Source: Escherichia phage vB_EcoS-12210I | Sequence record: NC_049813.1 | Reading direction: 5' to 3' (one strand) | Length of the DNA stretch: 44,219 nucleotides | Shown: positions 2,561 through 44,219 of the stretch, in pieces | How the letters are laid out: each line of letters starts with the position of its first letter | Numbering within the stretch: the first letter of the stretch is position 1 | Program-made: the position numbers and the translations under genes | The notes under the pieces: model-generated | Databases searched by the model: none | The model's input: only the letters and a program-made list of their open reading frames with translations | What the model was told of the DNA's origin: nothing

Positions 2561-2637
2561 GACATTCTGATAATTTCATTTATTAACTCAGGGAGCGAGG
2601 TTTTTACTTTACTTTTTGGATGGCAATTTTGTTTAAG

Positions 2638-2703
2638 TGACTACAATTAAATGTAGTCATTTTAAGTGACTGCAATAAAATGTAGTCAGCAATATTGACT
2701 ACA
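2638..2703 (+). promoter_or_regulatory. Operator-like array: two 22-bp palindromes (TGACTACA-N6-TGTAGTCA at 2638-2659; TGACTGCA-N6-TGTAGTCA at 2667-2688) plus half-site 2696-2703
   Basis: Tandem 29-bp units each holding an inverted repeat, directly upstream of the RBS of the 2752 HTH gene. Confidence 0.6.
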
Positions 2704-39629: not shown

Positions 39630-40103
39630 ATGAATGCAGTAGACAAGCGAACCATTAACGGCAATAACGGAACCATCCGCACTGAAGATAAAAAGCAGCG
39701 AAAACGACCTTCAGGTTACTACGTTTTAAAAGATGAAGTAAGAGCGGGTTTACGTGCGCGGCTGGAAATTGTTCTTGATTTCTTCGGCACAAAGGCAAAT
39801 ATGGCAAAGCAATTAAAGGTAACACCACAGGCTGTAGAAGAATGGTTTAAGCGCGGCATGATGTCGGCGCGTGGTGCTCAGCTTTCGCACAACTACTATA
39901 AGCGAAATGGAGAAGGTTTTCGCGCAACATTCTGCCGACCAGACTTGCAATTCGACGGCAACGGCAAGCCGCTGACACTTCGGTGCAAAAAACGCCACAT
40001 GCTTCGCGTGGTTACCGAGGCTGAATTAGCCACCAAGCCAGAGTGTCGGTCCTGGCGCAAAATTAAGGCCGCTAACGAAGCAGCACGGAAAGCTAAAGAG
40101 TAA
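39630..40103 (+). CDS. Putative HTH DNA-binding protein, 157 aa
   Basis: GAGG RBS; HTH-like KANMAKQLKVTPQAVEEWFKRG. Confidence 0.45.
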   Translation: MNAVDKRTINGNNGTIRTEDKKQRKRPSGYYVLKDEVRAGLRARLEIVLDFFGTKANMAKQLKVTPQAVEEWFKRGMMSARGAQLSHNYYKRNGEGFRATFCRPDLQFDGNGKPLTLRCKKRHMLRVVTEAELATKPECRSWRKIKAANEAARKAKE

Positions 40104-40106
40104 GGG

Positions 40107-40152
40107 AAATAGCACTAATTGATAAACAGTGGCGCTATGCATTGTGTATAGT
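40107..40152 (+). promoter_or_regulatory. Promoter-like module copy p: element 40107-40126, TATAGT 40147-40152
   Basis: Element and hexamer with 20-bp spacer. Confidence 0.55.
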
Positions 40153-40178
40153 GCCTTTATTGTTTATGGAGGGTGTAT

Positions 40179-41105
40179 ATGAATTATCATGACAAAAATG
40201 AAGTGATAGCTAAAATGAAAGGGATGTGGGGTGAGTTCTACTTGTCTCATTTGGGATGGACCAGAGAAAATCTTAGCAAGAAGCATGGGCCATGCCCGAA
40301 TTGTGGAGGTCGTGATAGGTTTAGATTCACTGATGAGTTAGGTCAAGAAAAGGGAAATGGAGCAGCAATATGCAACCAGTGCGGCAATGATTCTGGTGTT
40401 GGTTGGGTCATGAAGTGTTCCGGAATGAGTTATAGTGAAACAATAGATACGCTTGGTGATTGGCTAAATCTCGTTCCAGTAGAGGTTATATCAAAAGCAA
40501 ACAAAAGAGCATCTCGTACATCACCATACAAAATGGGCGCTCAGATTGACCATGAAAGATGCTTAGAGATAATGGAAAGGACGGAGAGGGTAGAATCAAC
40601 TCCACTCAGCATATATGAGGGTATCTATAGCGAGTTTGGCTTTGATGTTGGCAGAACAAAATCAGGCGAAATAATACACGCAATACCGTGTTTTATGGCT
40701 TATAGTGACGGCATATCGGAAGAAATGTGCAATGTAATGTTTATAAATGAAGATGGAGATGTTAGTTATGCTGCAAAAGATTACACTCGCCAATCTGTCG
40801 CTGTTATTGGTGCCTTTAAAAGTGATGAGTACGCTTATCTTGTGGATAATTGGATTGATGGTATTCGTGTTCATCTTGCTACTGGTAACCGCTGTGTACT
40901 TGTTTGCCACTCTAGCTACAATATGGAGATGGTTGCTTATGCGCTTAGGAACCACAAGCTGAGAGTGGCTTGTACTCGCCACGATTTTGATTTACTCGCC
41001 GTTGCTGATGATCGCAATCTTGATGTTGTAATGCCAAATGATGATAATTTTTTCAAGTCAGGAATAAGAAAGCGCATATACAAGGCAAGCGAATTACTAG
41101 ACTAA
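40179..41105 (+). CDS. DNA primase (zinc-ribbon type)
   Basis: GGAGGG RBS; CPNCGG...C..C zinc-binding motif near the N-terminus. Confidence 0.65.
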   Translation: MNYHDKNEVIAKMKGMWGEFYLSHLGWTRENLSKKHGPCPNCGGRDRFRFTDELGQEKGNGAAICNQCGNDSGVGWVMKCSGMSYSETIDTLGDWLNLVPVEVISKANKRASRTSPYKMGAQIDHERCLEIMERTERVESTPLSIYEGIYSEFGFDVGRTKSGEIIHAIPCFMAYSDGISEEMCNVMFINEDGDVSYAAKDYTRQSVAVIGAFKSDEYAYLVDNWIDGIRVHLATGNRCVLVCHSSYNMEMVAYALRNHKLRVACTRHDFDLLAVADDRNLDVVMPNDDNFFKSGIRKRIYKASELLD

Positions 41106-41127
41106 CCTCCTTCGGGAGGTTTTTTTA
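41105..41127 (+). terminator. Rho-independent terminator after primase
   Basis: ACCTCC-TTCG-GGAGGT followed by T7. Confidence 0.75.
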
Positions 41128-41138
41128 TGCCTGAAAGA

Positions 41139-41172
41139 TGATACAATCCAACTTATCAATTAGTGCTATTTT
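41139..41172 (+). promoter_or_regulatory. Candidate tail-fibre promoter (TGATACAAT extended -10 at 41139-41147) overlapped at +1 by an inverted copy of the 20-bp element (41153-41172)
   Basis: Element copy q is in the opposite orientation to all other plus-gene copies and lies downstream of the -10. Confidence 0.4.
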
Positions 41173-41192
41173 ACAAATGGAGACTTTACACA

Positions 41193-43562
41193 ATGGCAAT
41201 TTATGACTTAGGAACCGCCTCGCTGGCCGCAAATGGCAAGGTAACTGGCGCGGGGACAACATGGAAAGCACCTCTTACACTGATCAGGGTTGGTGCCACT
41301 ATCATTTTTAAAACTAACCCACTAAAAATTTACACCATCTCTGAAATCATCAGTGATACGCAGATTAATGTTTACAATCCTAATTCTGAAACAGTTCCGG
41401 CTGGTACGGGTTATGCGATTCTTGCGCACGATGGTATTACGGTTCAGGGTTTGGCTCAGGATGTTGCGGAGACTTTGCGATACTATCAGTCAAAGGAGAC
41501 TTCTATTGAAAGTTTACTGCAATTTATCGGGCAAGATACTTTCGATTGGCCTCGCTTCGAGCAATTAGCCAACCAGTCAGTAACAGGCGCCTCCGAGGCT
41601 TTAGCTAGCCAGATTGCCGCAGCAGAGAGCGCCGCCACTGCTGTTAGTGCAAGAGACATAACTACAGCCGCAAGAGATGCAACTATCGCAGCCATTGATA
41701 GCGCTGGAGACGCGGGGGCTATGGTTGCTCTCGCAGGAATGGGAATTAGCGGAACAACGCCACTTCTAACATCGCTTGACTGGGATACGTTTAATTTCAA
41801 TTCTGGCTCTCGTTACCTGTGCCGGGTATCATCGATGACCAACACCCCGGAGGTGATAACATCAACCTTCGCAGCTGCGACAGTCTGCATAATTGAAGTT
41901 AAATCAAACCGAGGGATCAATGGTCAGAAAAACTTCCAGATTTCAGCAAACACGTCATCTGATAACATATACAGAGTCATTGACCTAAACCAGACTGTAG
42001 CGGGCGGTGTGCGCTCCTATTCATCCAGAGAGGCTCTGTATGTTGCTTCTGGCTCTAATACTGGTGGCGCAAGTGCTAATAGAGTAAGGGGTTTGCTTGA
42101 TGTTTATTCAAAAAGTGAGACTTTTCAAAAATCATTAAACCTCTCTGACGTTTCAAATAAAGCTACAGCAAGAACCAATCTTGATGTTTACTCAAAGTCA
42201 GAAATTTACTCAAAGTCAGAAATTAACTCAAGAGAGGGTTATTCAACTAATCTTGCGGAAGTTATTTCAGGGCTATCAAGCGGTATGGCAACTATATCTA
42301 AGTCCTTGGTTATCTCCGATGGGCTTTCGGTGCCTTCATTTGCTGAAATATCAGGCGATAAAAACTTTAGGGCTGGTTTTATTGGAGTTGATTATAGAAA
42401 GAACAAGACGATAAGGAAAAGTTCAAACTCTACAGTTACATTATCAAATCAGGATTCCAACGCAGGCAGTCAGGTTGTTGACGCAGTTCTTTACCAGGAC
42501 CCAGCGTGGCCTTTTGCTTCTGTTTACCCGCAGAAGACAACAATAAAAAATCTAACAATTGAGGGTAACTCGGCTGCAAGCAAGAATCAGGCAGCGATTT
42601 ACATCCTACAAGCAGGCGTTGCTGAAATTGATGGCGTAGATACTATTAACTGTAAGTATTCAGTGTGGTCAAAGGATATTTTTCAGACGCGCATTAACCG
42701 CGTTTTCTCTAACGACGGAAAGATAAGGCTGGATAACGGAACATCGGTTGTTATTTCTAACTGCGGGCTTGCATCATCAGACACTGAGAGAACTGGAGCC
42801 TTTGACCTTACCGGAATGAAGTACTCAACAATGATTAGCTGCACTTCAGACCACACGACAAATACCGCTTATTCACTCAATGCGTGTGAGGGGTTGAGCA
42901 TGATTTCATGTGGGTGTGAAGCATCAGGAACAACTACAGCAAATTCAGGAACGGCGATTGCATTTAGGGATAACAACAAGAATATCTTTGTTAGTGGATT
43001 CTCATGCTTACCTGTACCAGATCAAGGGCCTGCATTGGTTAGCTTCGGATCTAACAATGATATCAACCTTACTAACTTTGAAGTCATACCAGGAATAAAC
43101 TACTCATCTGACTTCTATATTGCTGGTCCTGGAAACAACATCGTTATTAATGGCGGTCGTTTTGGGAGATCTGGCAGCTTAATGCCTGTTGTGACAGCTA
43201 GTGGAAGCGCAATTGGATCAAGGATTACATACAACGCATCAAACGGCGTAACGTATGATTACGTAGTTTCCGCGGCTGGAGTTGTAAATCCAGTACCAAG
43301 AAAAAGCGCAATAACTTCTATTCTCGTAAACGCTGAAGGTAATGTAATTAGAGGCTCGGGGGCTTCATGTGAGAGAGAGGCTGACGGAACGTACCTTGTA
43401 ACTCTTGATTATTCAAATGGAATTACGGGCGCATCAGTTGATTTGTATGGTTACATTGGTTTATCTTCATTTGTGTTTGTTGATAACAACAAGATTAGGG
43501 TTAGCGTAACAAATACAGGAGGAGTATCTGTAAACCAAGCATTTAGTGTTATAGTTTTCTAA
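41193..43562 (+). CDS. Tail fibre protein, about 789 aa
   Basis: ATG 41193 (MAIYDLGTA); internal tandem YSKSE repeats (fibre-repeat-like); terminator downstream. Confidence 0.7.
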   Translation: MAIYDLGTASLAANGKVTGAGTTWKAPLTLIRVGATIIFKTNPLKIYTISEIISDTQINVYNPNSETVPAGTGYAILAHDGITVQGLAQDVAETLRYYQSKETSIESLLQFIGQDTFDWPRFEQLANQSVTGASEALASQIAAAESAATAVSARDITTAARDATIAAIDSAGDAGAMVALAGMGISGTTPLLTSLDWDTFNFNSGSRYLCRVSSMTNTPEVITSTFAAATVCIIEVKSNRGINGQKNFQISANTSSDNIYRVIDLNQTVAGGVRSYSSREALYVASGSNTGGASANRVRGLLDVYSKSETFQKSLNLSDVSNKATARTNLDVYSKSEIYSKSEINSREGYSTNLAEVISGLSSGMATISKSLVISDGLSVPSFAEISGDKNFRAGFIGVDYRKNKTIRKSSNSTVTLSNQDSNAGSQVVDAVLYQDPAWPFASVYPQKTTIKNLTIEGNSAASKNQAAIYILQAGVAEIDGVDTINCKYSVWSKDIFQTRINRVFSNDGKIRLDNGTSVVISNCGLASSDTERTGAFDLTGMKYSTMISCTSDHTTNTAYSLNACEGLSMISCGCEASGTTTANSGTAIAFRDNNKNIFVSGFSCLPVPDQGPALVSFGSNNDINLTNFEVIPGINYSSDFYIAGPGNNIVINGGRFGRSGSLMPVVTASGSAIGSRITYNASNGVTYDYVVSAAGVVNPVPRKSAITSILVNAEGNVIRGSGASCEREADGTYLVTLDYSNGITGASVDLYGYIGLSSFVFVDNNKIRVSVTNTGGVSVNQAFSVIVF

Positions 43563-43569
43563 CAAGAAA

Positions 43570-43592
43570 AGCCCCGAAAGGGGCTTTATCTT
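43570..43592. terminator. Bidirectional terminator between tail fibre and ssb
   Basis: AGCCCC-GAAA-GGGGCT with T-rich flank. Confidence 0.7.
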
Positions 43593-43595
43593 TTA

Positions 43596-44021
43596 TCAGA
43601 ATGGGATGTCGTCCTCGAAGTTCTGTTGCTGCTGAGGTTGCTGTTGCCGCTGAGGTTGCTGTTGCCGCTGAGGTTGATGTTGCTGTTGCTGCGGTGCTGA
43701 ATCACCACGCTGACTAAACTCAAGTCGCGGATTGTTCATGTTAATGGTTACGTAAGTCTTACCATCTTTATCCCTAACATCTACAGCCAAACTTTCAGCG
43801 CTAACACTAACAACTTTACCTTCTTGAAATGCATCATTGTACCAATCTAACATAGATTCTTTAGCGAAGAAGACGGCGCGATAGTTACTATACTGATTCT
43901 GCCCATCTTTATCCTTATATCGCTCACTCAAATCAACTGCGAACATTTTCCAGCTACCATTAGCATTCTGACCTTCCTTAGTGAATGGGGCGCGTCGAAT
44001 CTGACCAGTAATTACGTGCAT
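43596..44021 (-). CDS. ssb: Single-stranded DNA-binding protein
   Basis: C-terminal acidic tail ending DDIPF preceded by a Gln/Pro-rich linker. Confidence 0.85.
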   Translation of the reverse strand: MHVITGQIRRAPFTKEGQNANGSWKMFAVDLSERYKDKDGQNQYSNYRAVFFAKESMLDWYNDAFQEGKVVSVSAESLAVDVRDKDGKTYVTINMNNPRLEFSQRGDSAPQQQQHQPQRQQQPQRQQQPQQQQNFEDDIPF

Positions 44022-44062: not shown

Positions 44063-44219
44063 TTAGAATGTGTCGATTTGTTTTGATTCTACTTTAATCT
44101 TTTCTTCAGGACTACTTTTTTCTGCAACTTTCTTTGGTGCTGCTGGGTTGAAGCCAGTTGCTGCATTTGCTTCAATCTCTGCCTTTCGCTCTATGATGTG
44201 GGGTTCGAAAACCTTCCAT
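44063..44219 (-). CDS. 3-prime part of the ERF-like gene (same gene as 1-621; 44093-44219 duplicates 1-127)
   Basis: Frame continuity across the junction; TAA at 44063-44065. Confidence 0.5.
   Translation of the reverse strand, partial: WKVFEPHIIERKAEIEANAATGFNPAAPKKVAEKSSPEEKIKVESKQIDTF
44093..44219. repeat. Terminal overlap copy (identical to 1-127)
   Basis: Direct comparison. Confidence 0.9.

Follow-up and report, generated by a model that had tools for sequence, protein, structure and literature searches.

Lateral tail fibres of Drexlerviridae are conserved at their far N-terminus only, the homology among them being confined to the 5' end of the gene, and it has been proposed, without direct demonstration, that O-antigen is bound by such fibres, which hosts lacking it would render dispensable (PMC8594841). 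Beta-layer hexads and nonads of trimeric alpha/beta coiled coils have been described by Hartmann et al. (2016, eLife; PMC4786415), in whose work six-residue inserts form beta-layers with the consensus [aliphatic]-A-T-K-[polar]-[DE], the chains rotate by about 120 degrees at every layer, and the tailspikes of P22, CBA120 and Det7 have beta-layers at transitions from coiled coil to beta-helix. Consecutive layers at hexad spacing were known there only from the prophage tail fibre HylP1, which contains 'VYTKAE', and could not be built from MATKDD repeats (PMC4786415). Here we describe an 18-nt in-frame tandem duplication in the tail-fibre gene of Escherichia phage vB_EcoS-12210I (NC_049813.1), analysed over the whole stretch of 44,219 nt, hereafter the window. 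With a probability of about 0.7 for the explanation as a whole, we read it as a derived duplication at a module junction, which would have originated by slippage or misalignment and would act as a beta-layer spacer.

The fibre gene and its modules

The source genome is a complete Veterinaerplatzvirus (Drexlerviridae), a T1-like coliphage. The first 127 nt of the window are the same as its last 127 nt, an assembler artefact situated away from the repeat. The gene had been taken for a tail-fibre gene in an earlier note on this DNA, and its match to phrog_24092 bears this out (Table 1). Its true start is the ATG at 41193, preceded by GGAG at 41179-41182, and not the upstream GTG at 41163; MAIYDLG begins every homologue, and both a ribosome binding site and the primase terminator were found upstream of the gene. 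As in other Drexlerviridae lateral tail fibres, the N-terminal attachment domain is conserved and the gene has the primase on one side and the ERF/exonuclease genes on the other, and there is synteny with the annotated tail-fibre genes of G8, ACG-M12, EC3a and BEK6 and with contigs L013 and L014. The first ~120 residues share 75-100% amino acid identity with the relatives compared, and a phmmer search against the PDB matched residues 1-170 to 7VZ3, 7VYV and 7LZJ, all depolymerase chains, at E about 1e-33. A Pfam scan of the fibre protein gave no family at E<=1, tail-fibre repeat families included.

The C-terminal part is predicted to be a portable receptor-binding module. The AF2 model had a mean pLDDT of 81.7 overall, with values >80 from about model residue 70, and Foldseek against the PDB retrieved the Sf6, Det7, HK620 and CBA120 tailspikes together with Klebsiella and Acinetobacter depolymerases (E 1e-6 to 1e-7, probability 1.0); the right-handed parallel beta-helix of a tailspike or depolymerase is predicted by AF2 and Foldseek together. 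The module is also found joined to other N-terminal parts: at 46-58% identity it stands behind P22 head-binding (PF09008), TSP1/gp66 (PF18668) and T7-fibre (PF03906) N-termini, and also in PaulScherrer, and homology in those proteins starts at about GYS..TNLA.

Table 1. Features of the fibre gene and its surroundings (window positions)
Feature	Position	Strand	Details
Lateral (side) tail-fibre / tailspike gene, 789 aa	41193-43562	+	ORF list; tail fiber family phrog_24092 (E 3e-149)
N-terminal virion-attachment module, residues 1-170	41193-41702	+	Conserved across Drexlerviridae fibres
28-aa fibre-repeat unit DVYSKSETFQKSLNLSDVSNKATARTNL, residues 303-330	42099-42182	+	Has at its start the older, first DVYSKSE hexad (42099-42119)
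YSKSEI, copy 1 of the 18-nt unit	42189-42206	+	Residues 333-338; with V332 gives hexad V-YSKSE
YSKSEI, copy 2 (extra copy)	42207-42224	+	Residues 339-344; missing in BEK1-1, L013, L014, P0001-P0007, P0121-P0134
Downstream microhomology TTAACTCAAGA, start of I-NSREG	42223-42233	+	Read from sequences
Portable C-terminal receptor-binding module (predicted), residues 349-789	42237-43559	+	Short helix, right-handed beta-helix, C-terminal beta domain
Terminator-like hairpin, bidirectional	43568-43587	.	Between the fibre gene and a convergent SSB-like gene

The duplication and its copy number among relatives

The unit TTACTCAAAGTCAGAAAT occurs exactly twice in the window, head to tail, with starts at 42188 and 42206, which confirmed the perfect 18-bp tandem duplication at 42188-42223 that the earlier note had recorded. 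TRF likewise reported an array at 42187-42231 with a period of 18, 2.5 copies and 96% matches; the span of period-18 identity is 42187-42224, and the half-copy TTAACTCAAG (42223-42232), which TRF counts directly downstream, is present in single-copy alleles also. The whole 44 kb contains no more than three tandem arrays, and tandem duplications of such quality numbered 0 in 20 genome shuffles as against two observed genome-wide, which rules out a chance origin. In codon phase the unit reads TAC TCA AAG TCA GAA ATT and encodes YSKSEI, the array YSKSEI-YSKSEI corresponding to residues 333-344. The duplication is real and in frame, and adds one six-residue YSKSEI unit to the fibre neck, by which the shaft is connected with the putative sugar-binding tailspike head. 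A 77-aa ORF in an alternative frame (42181-42414) lies wholly within the well-supported fibre gene, its start being created by the repeat sequence itself. A template/variable repeat pair of a diversity-generating retroelement was dismissed, the copies being perfect, adjacent and only 18 nt long.

The unit had earlier been given as DVYSKSE(I/T), which is wrong since DV lies outside the duplication, and the diverged third copy said to adjoin it, if DVYSKSET was meant, is not adjacent but lies at 42099-42122, 28 codons upstream. It is an old paralogous motif, conserved across the subfamily, which is 7/8 identical to the array motif in protein and 17/24 in DNA, the codons for Y, K, S and E being different. 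The 18-nt duplication does, as stated then, lie within a repeat-motif region, in which the 28-aa fibre-repeat unit is conserved in Braunvirinae fibres and two DVYSK motifs stand 28 aa apart in 67/126 homologues (one motif in 50/126). Phage Msk has an independent 84-nt tandem duplication of the 28-aa repeat, 99% identical, and T145P1-type fibres have three consecutive hexads, VYSKSE-VYPRSD-VYSKTE, both of which speak for a hotspot.

Related isolates were compared for repeat number, as the earlier note had advised. One YSKSEI unit is present in BEK1-1, in contigs L013 and L014 and in 21 distinct database proteins (P0001-P0004 and 14 further cluster members, all of 783 aa, and P0005-P0007, of 661 aa), and two are present in the 41-record clinical clone of the window and in metagenomic contigs L015 and L016, which are ~8% diverged from the clone; copy number differs among relatives and hence is not strictly conserved. 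An exact 18-nt gap is the sole indel of the gene in the BEK1-1 alignment, and the same exact gap against the window was observed with L013 and L014; L013 is ~97% identical to the window, which its single unit and flanks match. L015 and L016, which come from other data sets, carry the copy-to-copy junction and encode an identical 789-aa protein; against the window they show 0 mismatches over 42168-42299, as against 19-34 in every 100 nt across the 400 nt at the gene's 5' end. The 41 clonal records, assembled independently, are identical over the whole fibre gene. An allele of three or more copies was found neither in the collections scanned nor among 158 proteins, and in scans of IMG/VR neither the single-copy allele nor the copy-to-copy junction had any match, so that this collection is uninformative for this phage group.

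On these alignments the single-unit allele is the ancestral type, and the allele of the window is the same sequence plus one exact copy, that is, a derived duplication. As the two-copy state occurs both in the clone and in contigs ~8% diverged from it, a 1-versus-2-copy allele is segregating. The two-copy alleles share an identical local haplotype, but whole-module distances do not cluster them, the C-module of two-copy L015 having 39 mismatches to the window but only 32 to single-copy L013. If the two-copy allele arose once, recombination must therefore have followed; alternatively, the 18-nt unit may have been gained or lost repeatedly.

The module junction, the proposed origin and competing explanations

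Homology of the fibre to nine other fibres stops at the second NLDVYSK. Max-chi-square analysis placed the best-supported breakpoint with BEK1-1 at 42240 (Fisher p 1e-8; mismatches 49/600 upstream vs 8/600 downstream) and that with L015 at 42168 (p 2e-7; 54 vs 13), and these two positions flank the repeat within 20 nt, with permutation p<=0.001 each. Taken together, the comparisons place the 18-nt unit at a family-wide boundary between a conserved N-terminal module and swappable C-terminal modules, and by the same comparisons the two-copy allele in the ~8% diverged phage is linked to the C-terminal module. As a variant in copy number the duplication is ordinary, and junctions of this kind, at which modules are swapped, are known. 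The view that this is a site of slippage or recombination was upheld as far as a recombination junction is concerned, by the end of homology and the two breakpoints, while ongoing instability was not, as the 41 records are identical and no allele of three or more copies was found.

In single-copy alleles TTAACTCAAGA stands exactly 18 nt after TTTACTCAAAG, which makes the pair a candidate substrate for slippage or misalignment, and the single-copy sequence already has the 18-nt-spaced microhomology TTTACTCAA / TTAACTCAA. We infer that the second copy arose by replication slippage, for which this pre-existing microhomology would be a plausible substrate, or when co-infecting genomes recombined out of alignment; the two routes would leave one and the same product. 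The two-copy allele may later have spread among backgrounds via homologous recombination at the junction.

With respect to the protein, V332-YSKSE and I338-YSKSE fit the hexad motif of beta-layers, with Y and S in place of the consensus A and T, much as in 'VYTKAE' of HylP1, and stand directly upstream of the beta-helix which AF2 and Foldseek confidently predict. By this motif matching, each [V/I]-Y-S-K-S-E hexad would be a single beta-layer in a neck formed by a trimeric alpha/beta coiled coil, so that the extra unit probably contributes one more layer ahead of the beta-helix tailspike domain. In that case the duplication would amount to exactly one structural period and would lengthen the neck by roughly 1 nm, by our estimate. 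Since each layer turns the chains by ~120 degrees on a three-fold axis, the geometry of the distal domain would be kept, which would explain why the two-copy allele is tolerated and persistent. In the AF2 monomer the YSKSEI segment has pLDDT<50 and confidence returns just after it, as expected if the segment is ordered only in the trimer and equally if it is a flexible linker. A segment of PDB 7OAA/7OAC, DVYTKDQLYTKTEINSQ, has hexad spacing and is identical to the window's segment at 11/21 positions, a weak match (E 0.14); a literature search for PDB 7OAA, 7OAC and 7OAD returned no paper, only unrelated compound labels. A bolder version, in which the neck is a natural alpha/beta coiled coil of consecutive hexad beta-layers whose number (1, 2, 3) is varied in phage populations by microhomology-driven duplication, so as to be a geometrically silent and neutral cassette for length tuning and for recombination linking in swaps of tailspike modules, is tentative, and we would rather expect it to fail than to hold in full.

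On our main reading the extra unit would be at most a small change of spacer and not of specificity, and the alteration of host range that had also been suggested found no support. Such an explanation would hold that the extra hexad was selected for altered reach or flexibility of the tailspike, hence for the hosts or glycans engaged. It gains from the persistence of the two-copy allele in two backgrounds ~8% apart and from the position of the neck, which directly precedes the predicted receptor-binding domain and whose repeat number varies across the family; it loses by the facts that the receptor-binding beta-helix is unchanged by the duplication, that the length change is very small (six residues per chain) and that most relatives with the same module have a single copy. 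O-antigen is missing from E. coli strain C. The clone was isolated and propagated on E. coli DSM 12242, which derives from strain C (PMC6753275) and on which such fibres would be dispensable under the proposal in PMC8594841. We consider an adaptive host-range mutation unlikely.

Still less probable is a hypermutable contingency locus, at which slippage-prone copy number would change often within populations and so vary fibre length or function in the manner of phase-variable simple-sequence repeats. Perfect tandem copies are inherently prone to gain and loss, 1- and 2-copy alleles are both natural, and recurrent change could explain why L015, with two copies, has a C-module nearer to that of L013, with one, than to that of the window; yet the locus consists of only two in-frame 18-mers, known in 1- and 2-copy states only and invariant over the gene in 41/41 clone records, alleles of at least three copies are seen neither in the scanned collections nor among the 158 proteins, and, the change being in frame, no on/off switching would follow. 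That the direct repeat has a non-coding function, as a protein-binding site, internal promoter or terminator, RNA structure or recoding signal, is very improbable: direct repeats can serve as binding sites and the 77-aa alternative-frame ORF starts at 42181, but no site resembling a promoter or terminator lies near the repeat, the RNA folds no better than shuffled sequences do (z = -0.28), the zero-frame GAA ATT TAC forms no X XXY YYZ slippery heptamer, and in single-copy relatives the gene is intact without the second copy. Moreover, the upstream paralogue keeps the amino acid motif in other codons, a sign that selection acts on the protein. A sequencing or assembly artefact of the repeat can be set aside, for although an assembler artefact is present at the ends of the window, a single read is much longer than the 36-nt array, and the array does not differ among 41 isolates, each assembled separately, or in two metagenomic contigs of other projects.

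Comparison with known fibres, tailspikes and coiled-coil necks

The import of these observations is modest, namely a nucleotide-resolution example of tail-fibre gene change at module junctions; a literature search on tandem duplication in tail-fibre linkers found nothing relevant. Short conserved motifs like NLDVYSK may serve as recombination linkers for swaps of receptor-binding heads and also supply the substrate on which small in-frame duplications form. Should the reading of hexads as beta-layers hold, the cassette at the junction would offer a natural 'plug point' that tolerates gain or loss of whole structural periods and would be useful for chimeric receptor-binding proteins on Drexlerviridae scaffolds; the duplication alone predicts no change of host range.

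Among described systems, the lateral fibres of the small siphoviruses (Drexlerviridae) of the BASEL collection (Maffei et al. 2021, PMC8594841) occupy the same locus, between primase and recombination genes, and share with the present fibre the conserved N-terminus, the hypervariable C-terminus and the proposed role in binding glycan (O-antigen) as primary receptor. Beyond that work, the junction is here resolved to an NLDVYSK / 28-aa repeat cassette with small in-frame duplications. The 28-aa motif itself resembles the NLSDVxNKAxARxNLG repeats of the short tail fiber gp92 (PDB 9ZD7, E 1.3e-8); in the 'NLSDLxxxxxARxNLGL' class of repeats (gp92 and P0008), SLNLSDVSNKATARTNLDV matches at least six repeats in 9ZD7, including ARQNLSVYSKAE. 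In contrast to such long arrays the 28-aa unit is present once or twice here, the likeness coming via PDB 9ZD7 only, with no Pfam match.

The predicted fold of residues ~355-789 is like that of the tailspikes and depolymerases of Sf6 (4URR/2VBK), Det7 (6F7K), HK620, the CBA120 TSPs, AS12 gp42 of Acinetobacter (6EU4) and KP32gp38 of Klebsiella (9QRM), and the module can be carried by N-terminal adaptors of different kinds; sequence identity to these proteins is only 10-14% and TM-scores are 0.3-0.5. As in the necks of P22, CBA120 and Det7 (PMC4786415), the hexads of the window stand in a phage fibre directly before a beta-helix tailspike domain (predicted). Their hexad spacing is that of ETVYTKAESKQE in the Streptococcus prophage tail-fibre hyaluronidase HylP1 (PDB 2C3F), an example of a trimeric alpha/beta coiled coil, and of the 7OAA segment, and V/I-Y-S-K-S-E fits [aliphatic]-x-[T/S]-K-[polar]-[D/E]. 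The differences from the hexads of PMC4786415 are the Y and S at the consensus A and T positions and the natural copy-number polymorphism of the hexad, which is not described there.

The duplicated unit and its gene

We found TTACTCAAAGTCAGAAAT exactly twice in the window, head to tail at 42188 and 42206, which confirmed the perfect 18-nt tandem duplication described in the earlier note. The repeat is in frame within the fibre ORF, and in codon phase its unit reads YSKSEI (residues 333-338 and 339-344). Only three tandem arrays were present in the whole genome, and shuffled genomes held no comparable array. The downstream half-copy included by TRF, TTAACTCAAG, is present in single-copy alleles too. 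An adjacent, diverged third copy had also been proposed; the upstream DVYSKSET is 28 codons away and encodes Y, K, S and E by codons other than those of the repeat, so that it represents an old paralogous motif under protein-level selection, outside the recent duplication.

The true start of the gene is the ATG at 41193, with GGAG 10 nt 5' of it and the MAIYDLG start shared by all homologues. The protein had no match in Pfam; its gene is syntenic with annotated tail-fibre genes adjoining primase, and residues 1-170 resemble the N-termini of Depolymerase chains 7VZ3, 7VYV and 7LZJ. An AF2 model of residues 285-789 (mean pLDDT 81.7, confident from about residue 354) predicts a right-handed beta-helix for the C-terminal part, matching the Sf6, Det7, HK620 and CBA120 tailspikes as well as several capsule depolymerases. 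This C-terminal module is portable: versions 46-58% identical to it follow N-termini of the P22 head-binding, TSP1/gp66 and T7-fibre types, and occur in enterobacterial prophage proteins and phage PaulScherrer; homology among the proteins sharing it starts at about 'GYS..TNLA', a few residues past the repeat. The BASEL paper (PMC8594841) finds only the N-terminus of these fibres conserved and proposes, without direct proof, that O-antigen serves them as a primary receptor that is not essential.

Features located in the window
Feature	Coordinates	Strand	Remarks
Complete genome	44,219 nt		Escherichia phage vB_EcoS series (MK9072xx); Drexlerviridae, Braunvirinae, Veterinaerplatzvirus
Identical ends	1-127 and 44093-44219		match stops at nt 128
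29-nt tandem repeat	2632-2703		between divergent ORFs (2491 minus, 2752 plus); palindrome TGACTACA...TGTAGTCA in each unit; third half-site at 2696-2704
Site without homing-endonuclease gene	~40103-40173		BEK1-1 has the annotated gene here (L012 4746-5270), between 157-aa ORF homologue and primase
Primase terminator	41104-41121		upstream of fibre gene; supports start at 41193
Lateral tail fibre (Drexlerviridae)	41193-43562	+	phrog_24092, E 3e-149; synteny beside primase
Divergent patch	41473-41572		30 mismatches to BEK1-1 in 100 nt; flanks 0-7 per 100 nt
Upstream DVYSKSET	42099-42122	+	
18-nt repeat (TRF)	42187-42231	+	period 18, 2.5 copies
Hairpin	43568-43587		perfect 8-bp, GC-rich, T-runs on both strands; between convergent fibre and SSB-like genes
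18-nt-period array	43623-43692	-	3.4 copies, 95% matches; gene 43596-44021; encodes Q/P-rich (QQQPQR)n tail of 141-aa protein

Elsewhere in the window, the 29-nt repeat resembles a series of operator sites between divergent promoters, and the hairpin is likely a bidirectional terminator. The position and acidic ...DDIPF end of the 141-aa protein suggest a single-strand DNA-binding protein, and its (QQQPQR)n array is another in-frame repeat, one that could differ in copy number.

Copy number among relatives

Over the fibre gene, 41 GenBank records show at least 99% identity to the window, and the source paper (PMC6834657) reports 34 phages, called 'identical', that came from 14 clinical samples and were all plated on DSM 12242, an E. 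coli derived from strain C; the records thus amount to one clone. T1-like phages are called notorious laboratory contaminants in the abstract of PMC13164509, and a shared origin in a laboratory or hospital may deserve consideration. The identical genome ends look like the assembler k-mer overlap of a circularised contig, which would make the non-redundant genome about 44,092 nt; the sister record vB_EcoS-26174I has 44,091 nt.

Beyond the clone, repeat number does vary. BEK1-1, the closest non-clonal GenBank relative, has one unit, the 18-nt gap being the gene's only indel. The metagenomic contig L013 (~97% identical) also has one, with unit sequence and flanks as in the window, so the window allele is an L013-type allele plus one exact copy. 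Among related database proteins, P0001-P0004 and a further 14 proteins of the P0001 cluster each have one unit and a length of 783 aa, six short of 789, and P0005-P0007 (661 aa, different shaft) likewise have one. Scanning for the copy-to-copy junction recovered two metagenomic contigs, L015 (44,077 nt) and L016, encoding an identical 789-aa two-copy protein; no allele of three or more copies was found among the relatives and collections scanned. L015 and L016 differ from the window by 19-34 mismatches per 100 nt over the gene's first 400 nt, by none across 42168-42299 and by 0-6 per 100 nt thereafter. The two-copy state is therefore an allele that segregates in association with the C-terminal module and not the clinical clone's private mutation.

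A recombination junction and the origin of the repeat

Sequence comparison places the repeat at a genuine recombination junction. Against BEK1-1 the window has 49/600 mismatches 5' of the repeat and 8/600 3' (Fisher p 1e-8; maximum chi-square breakpoint 42240), and against L015 54/600 upstream and 13/600 downstream (p 2e-7; breakpoint 42168), both breakpoints with permutation p<=0.001; L013 gave no significant breakpoint. Nine other Braunvirinae/Rogunavirinae fibres are 47-90% identical to the window over residues 281-320 and drop to 0-27%, close to background, past about residue 360, which puts the junction at or near the second NLDVYSK. Junction points vary slightly by lineage, all inside a cassette of 28-aa unit plus hexad. 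In phage Msk (MW057918; L008 1600-1784) the same cassette has undergone an independent recent event, an 84-nt tandem duplication of the 28-aa NLDVYSKNETFQKSLNFSDVANKSAART unit, with copies 99% identical, that results in three DVYSK motifs, and T145P1-type fibres carry three hexads in succession (VYSKSE-VYPRSD-VYSKTE). The divergent patch, which corresponds to about residues 94-127 and lies immediately ahead of the alanine-rich part of the fibre, is a small mosaic of its own.

Single-copy alleles carry TTTACTCAAAG and, exactly 18 nt on, TTAACTCAAG(A/G). Misalignment on this microhomology, during replication or recombination between co-infecting genomes, would yield precisely the observed duplication; ERF-type recombinase and exonuclease genes adjoin the fibre gene. 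We infer that the repeat arose by slippage or misaligned recombination, two routes that the product does not distinguish. Over the C-terminal module, two-copy L015 has 32 mismatches to single-copy L013 and 39 to the window, so either later recombination scrambled the linkage or gain and loss recur. The site of slippage or recombination envisaged in the earlier note is thus partly supported, in the origin of the repeat, its place at a junction and the differing copy number among relatives. Nothing supports ongoing instability, the 41 records being invariant, or an effect of the duplication on host range.

A contingency locus is rejected, the two in-frame copies being invariant in those records, and so is an assembly artefact, since independent assemblies agree (41 records, metagenomic contigs). 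RNA folding did not exceed that of shuffled sequences (z = -0.28), and the repeat holds no promoter-like or terminator-like site and no in-frame slippery heptamer for recoding. The feature is an ordinary small indel polymorphism of the fibre neck, for which there is a tidy candidate structural rationale.

Structural reading of the neck

That rationale is that the repeat hexads may be beta-layers of a trimeric neck. In the AF2 monomer, confidence is low over precisely the repeat stretch, which fits trimer-only order and a flexible linker equally. If YSKSEI hexads are beta-layers, the duplication would add one whole structural period, lengthening the neck by roughly 1 nm by our estimate and leaving the tailspike's three-fold geometry unchanged, which would account for the tolerance of the allele. 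In trimeric coiled coils, six- or nine-residue inserts form 'beta-layers' with the consensus [aliphatic]-A-T-K-[polar]-[D/E], each turning the chains by about 120 degrees (Hartmann et al., PMC4786415); V-YSKSE and I-YSKSE fit this pattern, I-NSREG more loosely. PDB 7OAA/7OAC, GCN4 fusions of the natural segment DVYTKDQLYTKTEINSQ, are identical to the window segment at 11/21 positions, with a weak E of 0.14. In the HylP1 prophage tail fibre 'VYTKAE' forms hexad-spaced layers, and the P22, CBA120 and Det7 tailspikes have beta-layers where the coiled coil passes into the beta-helix (PMC4786415).
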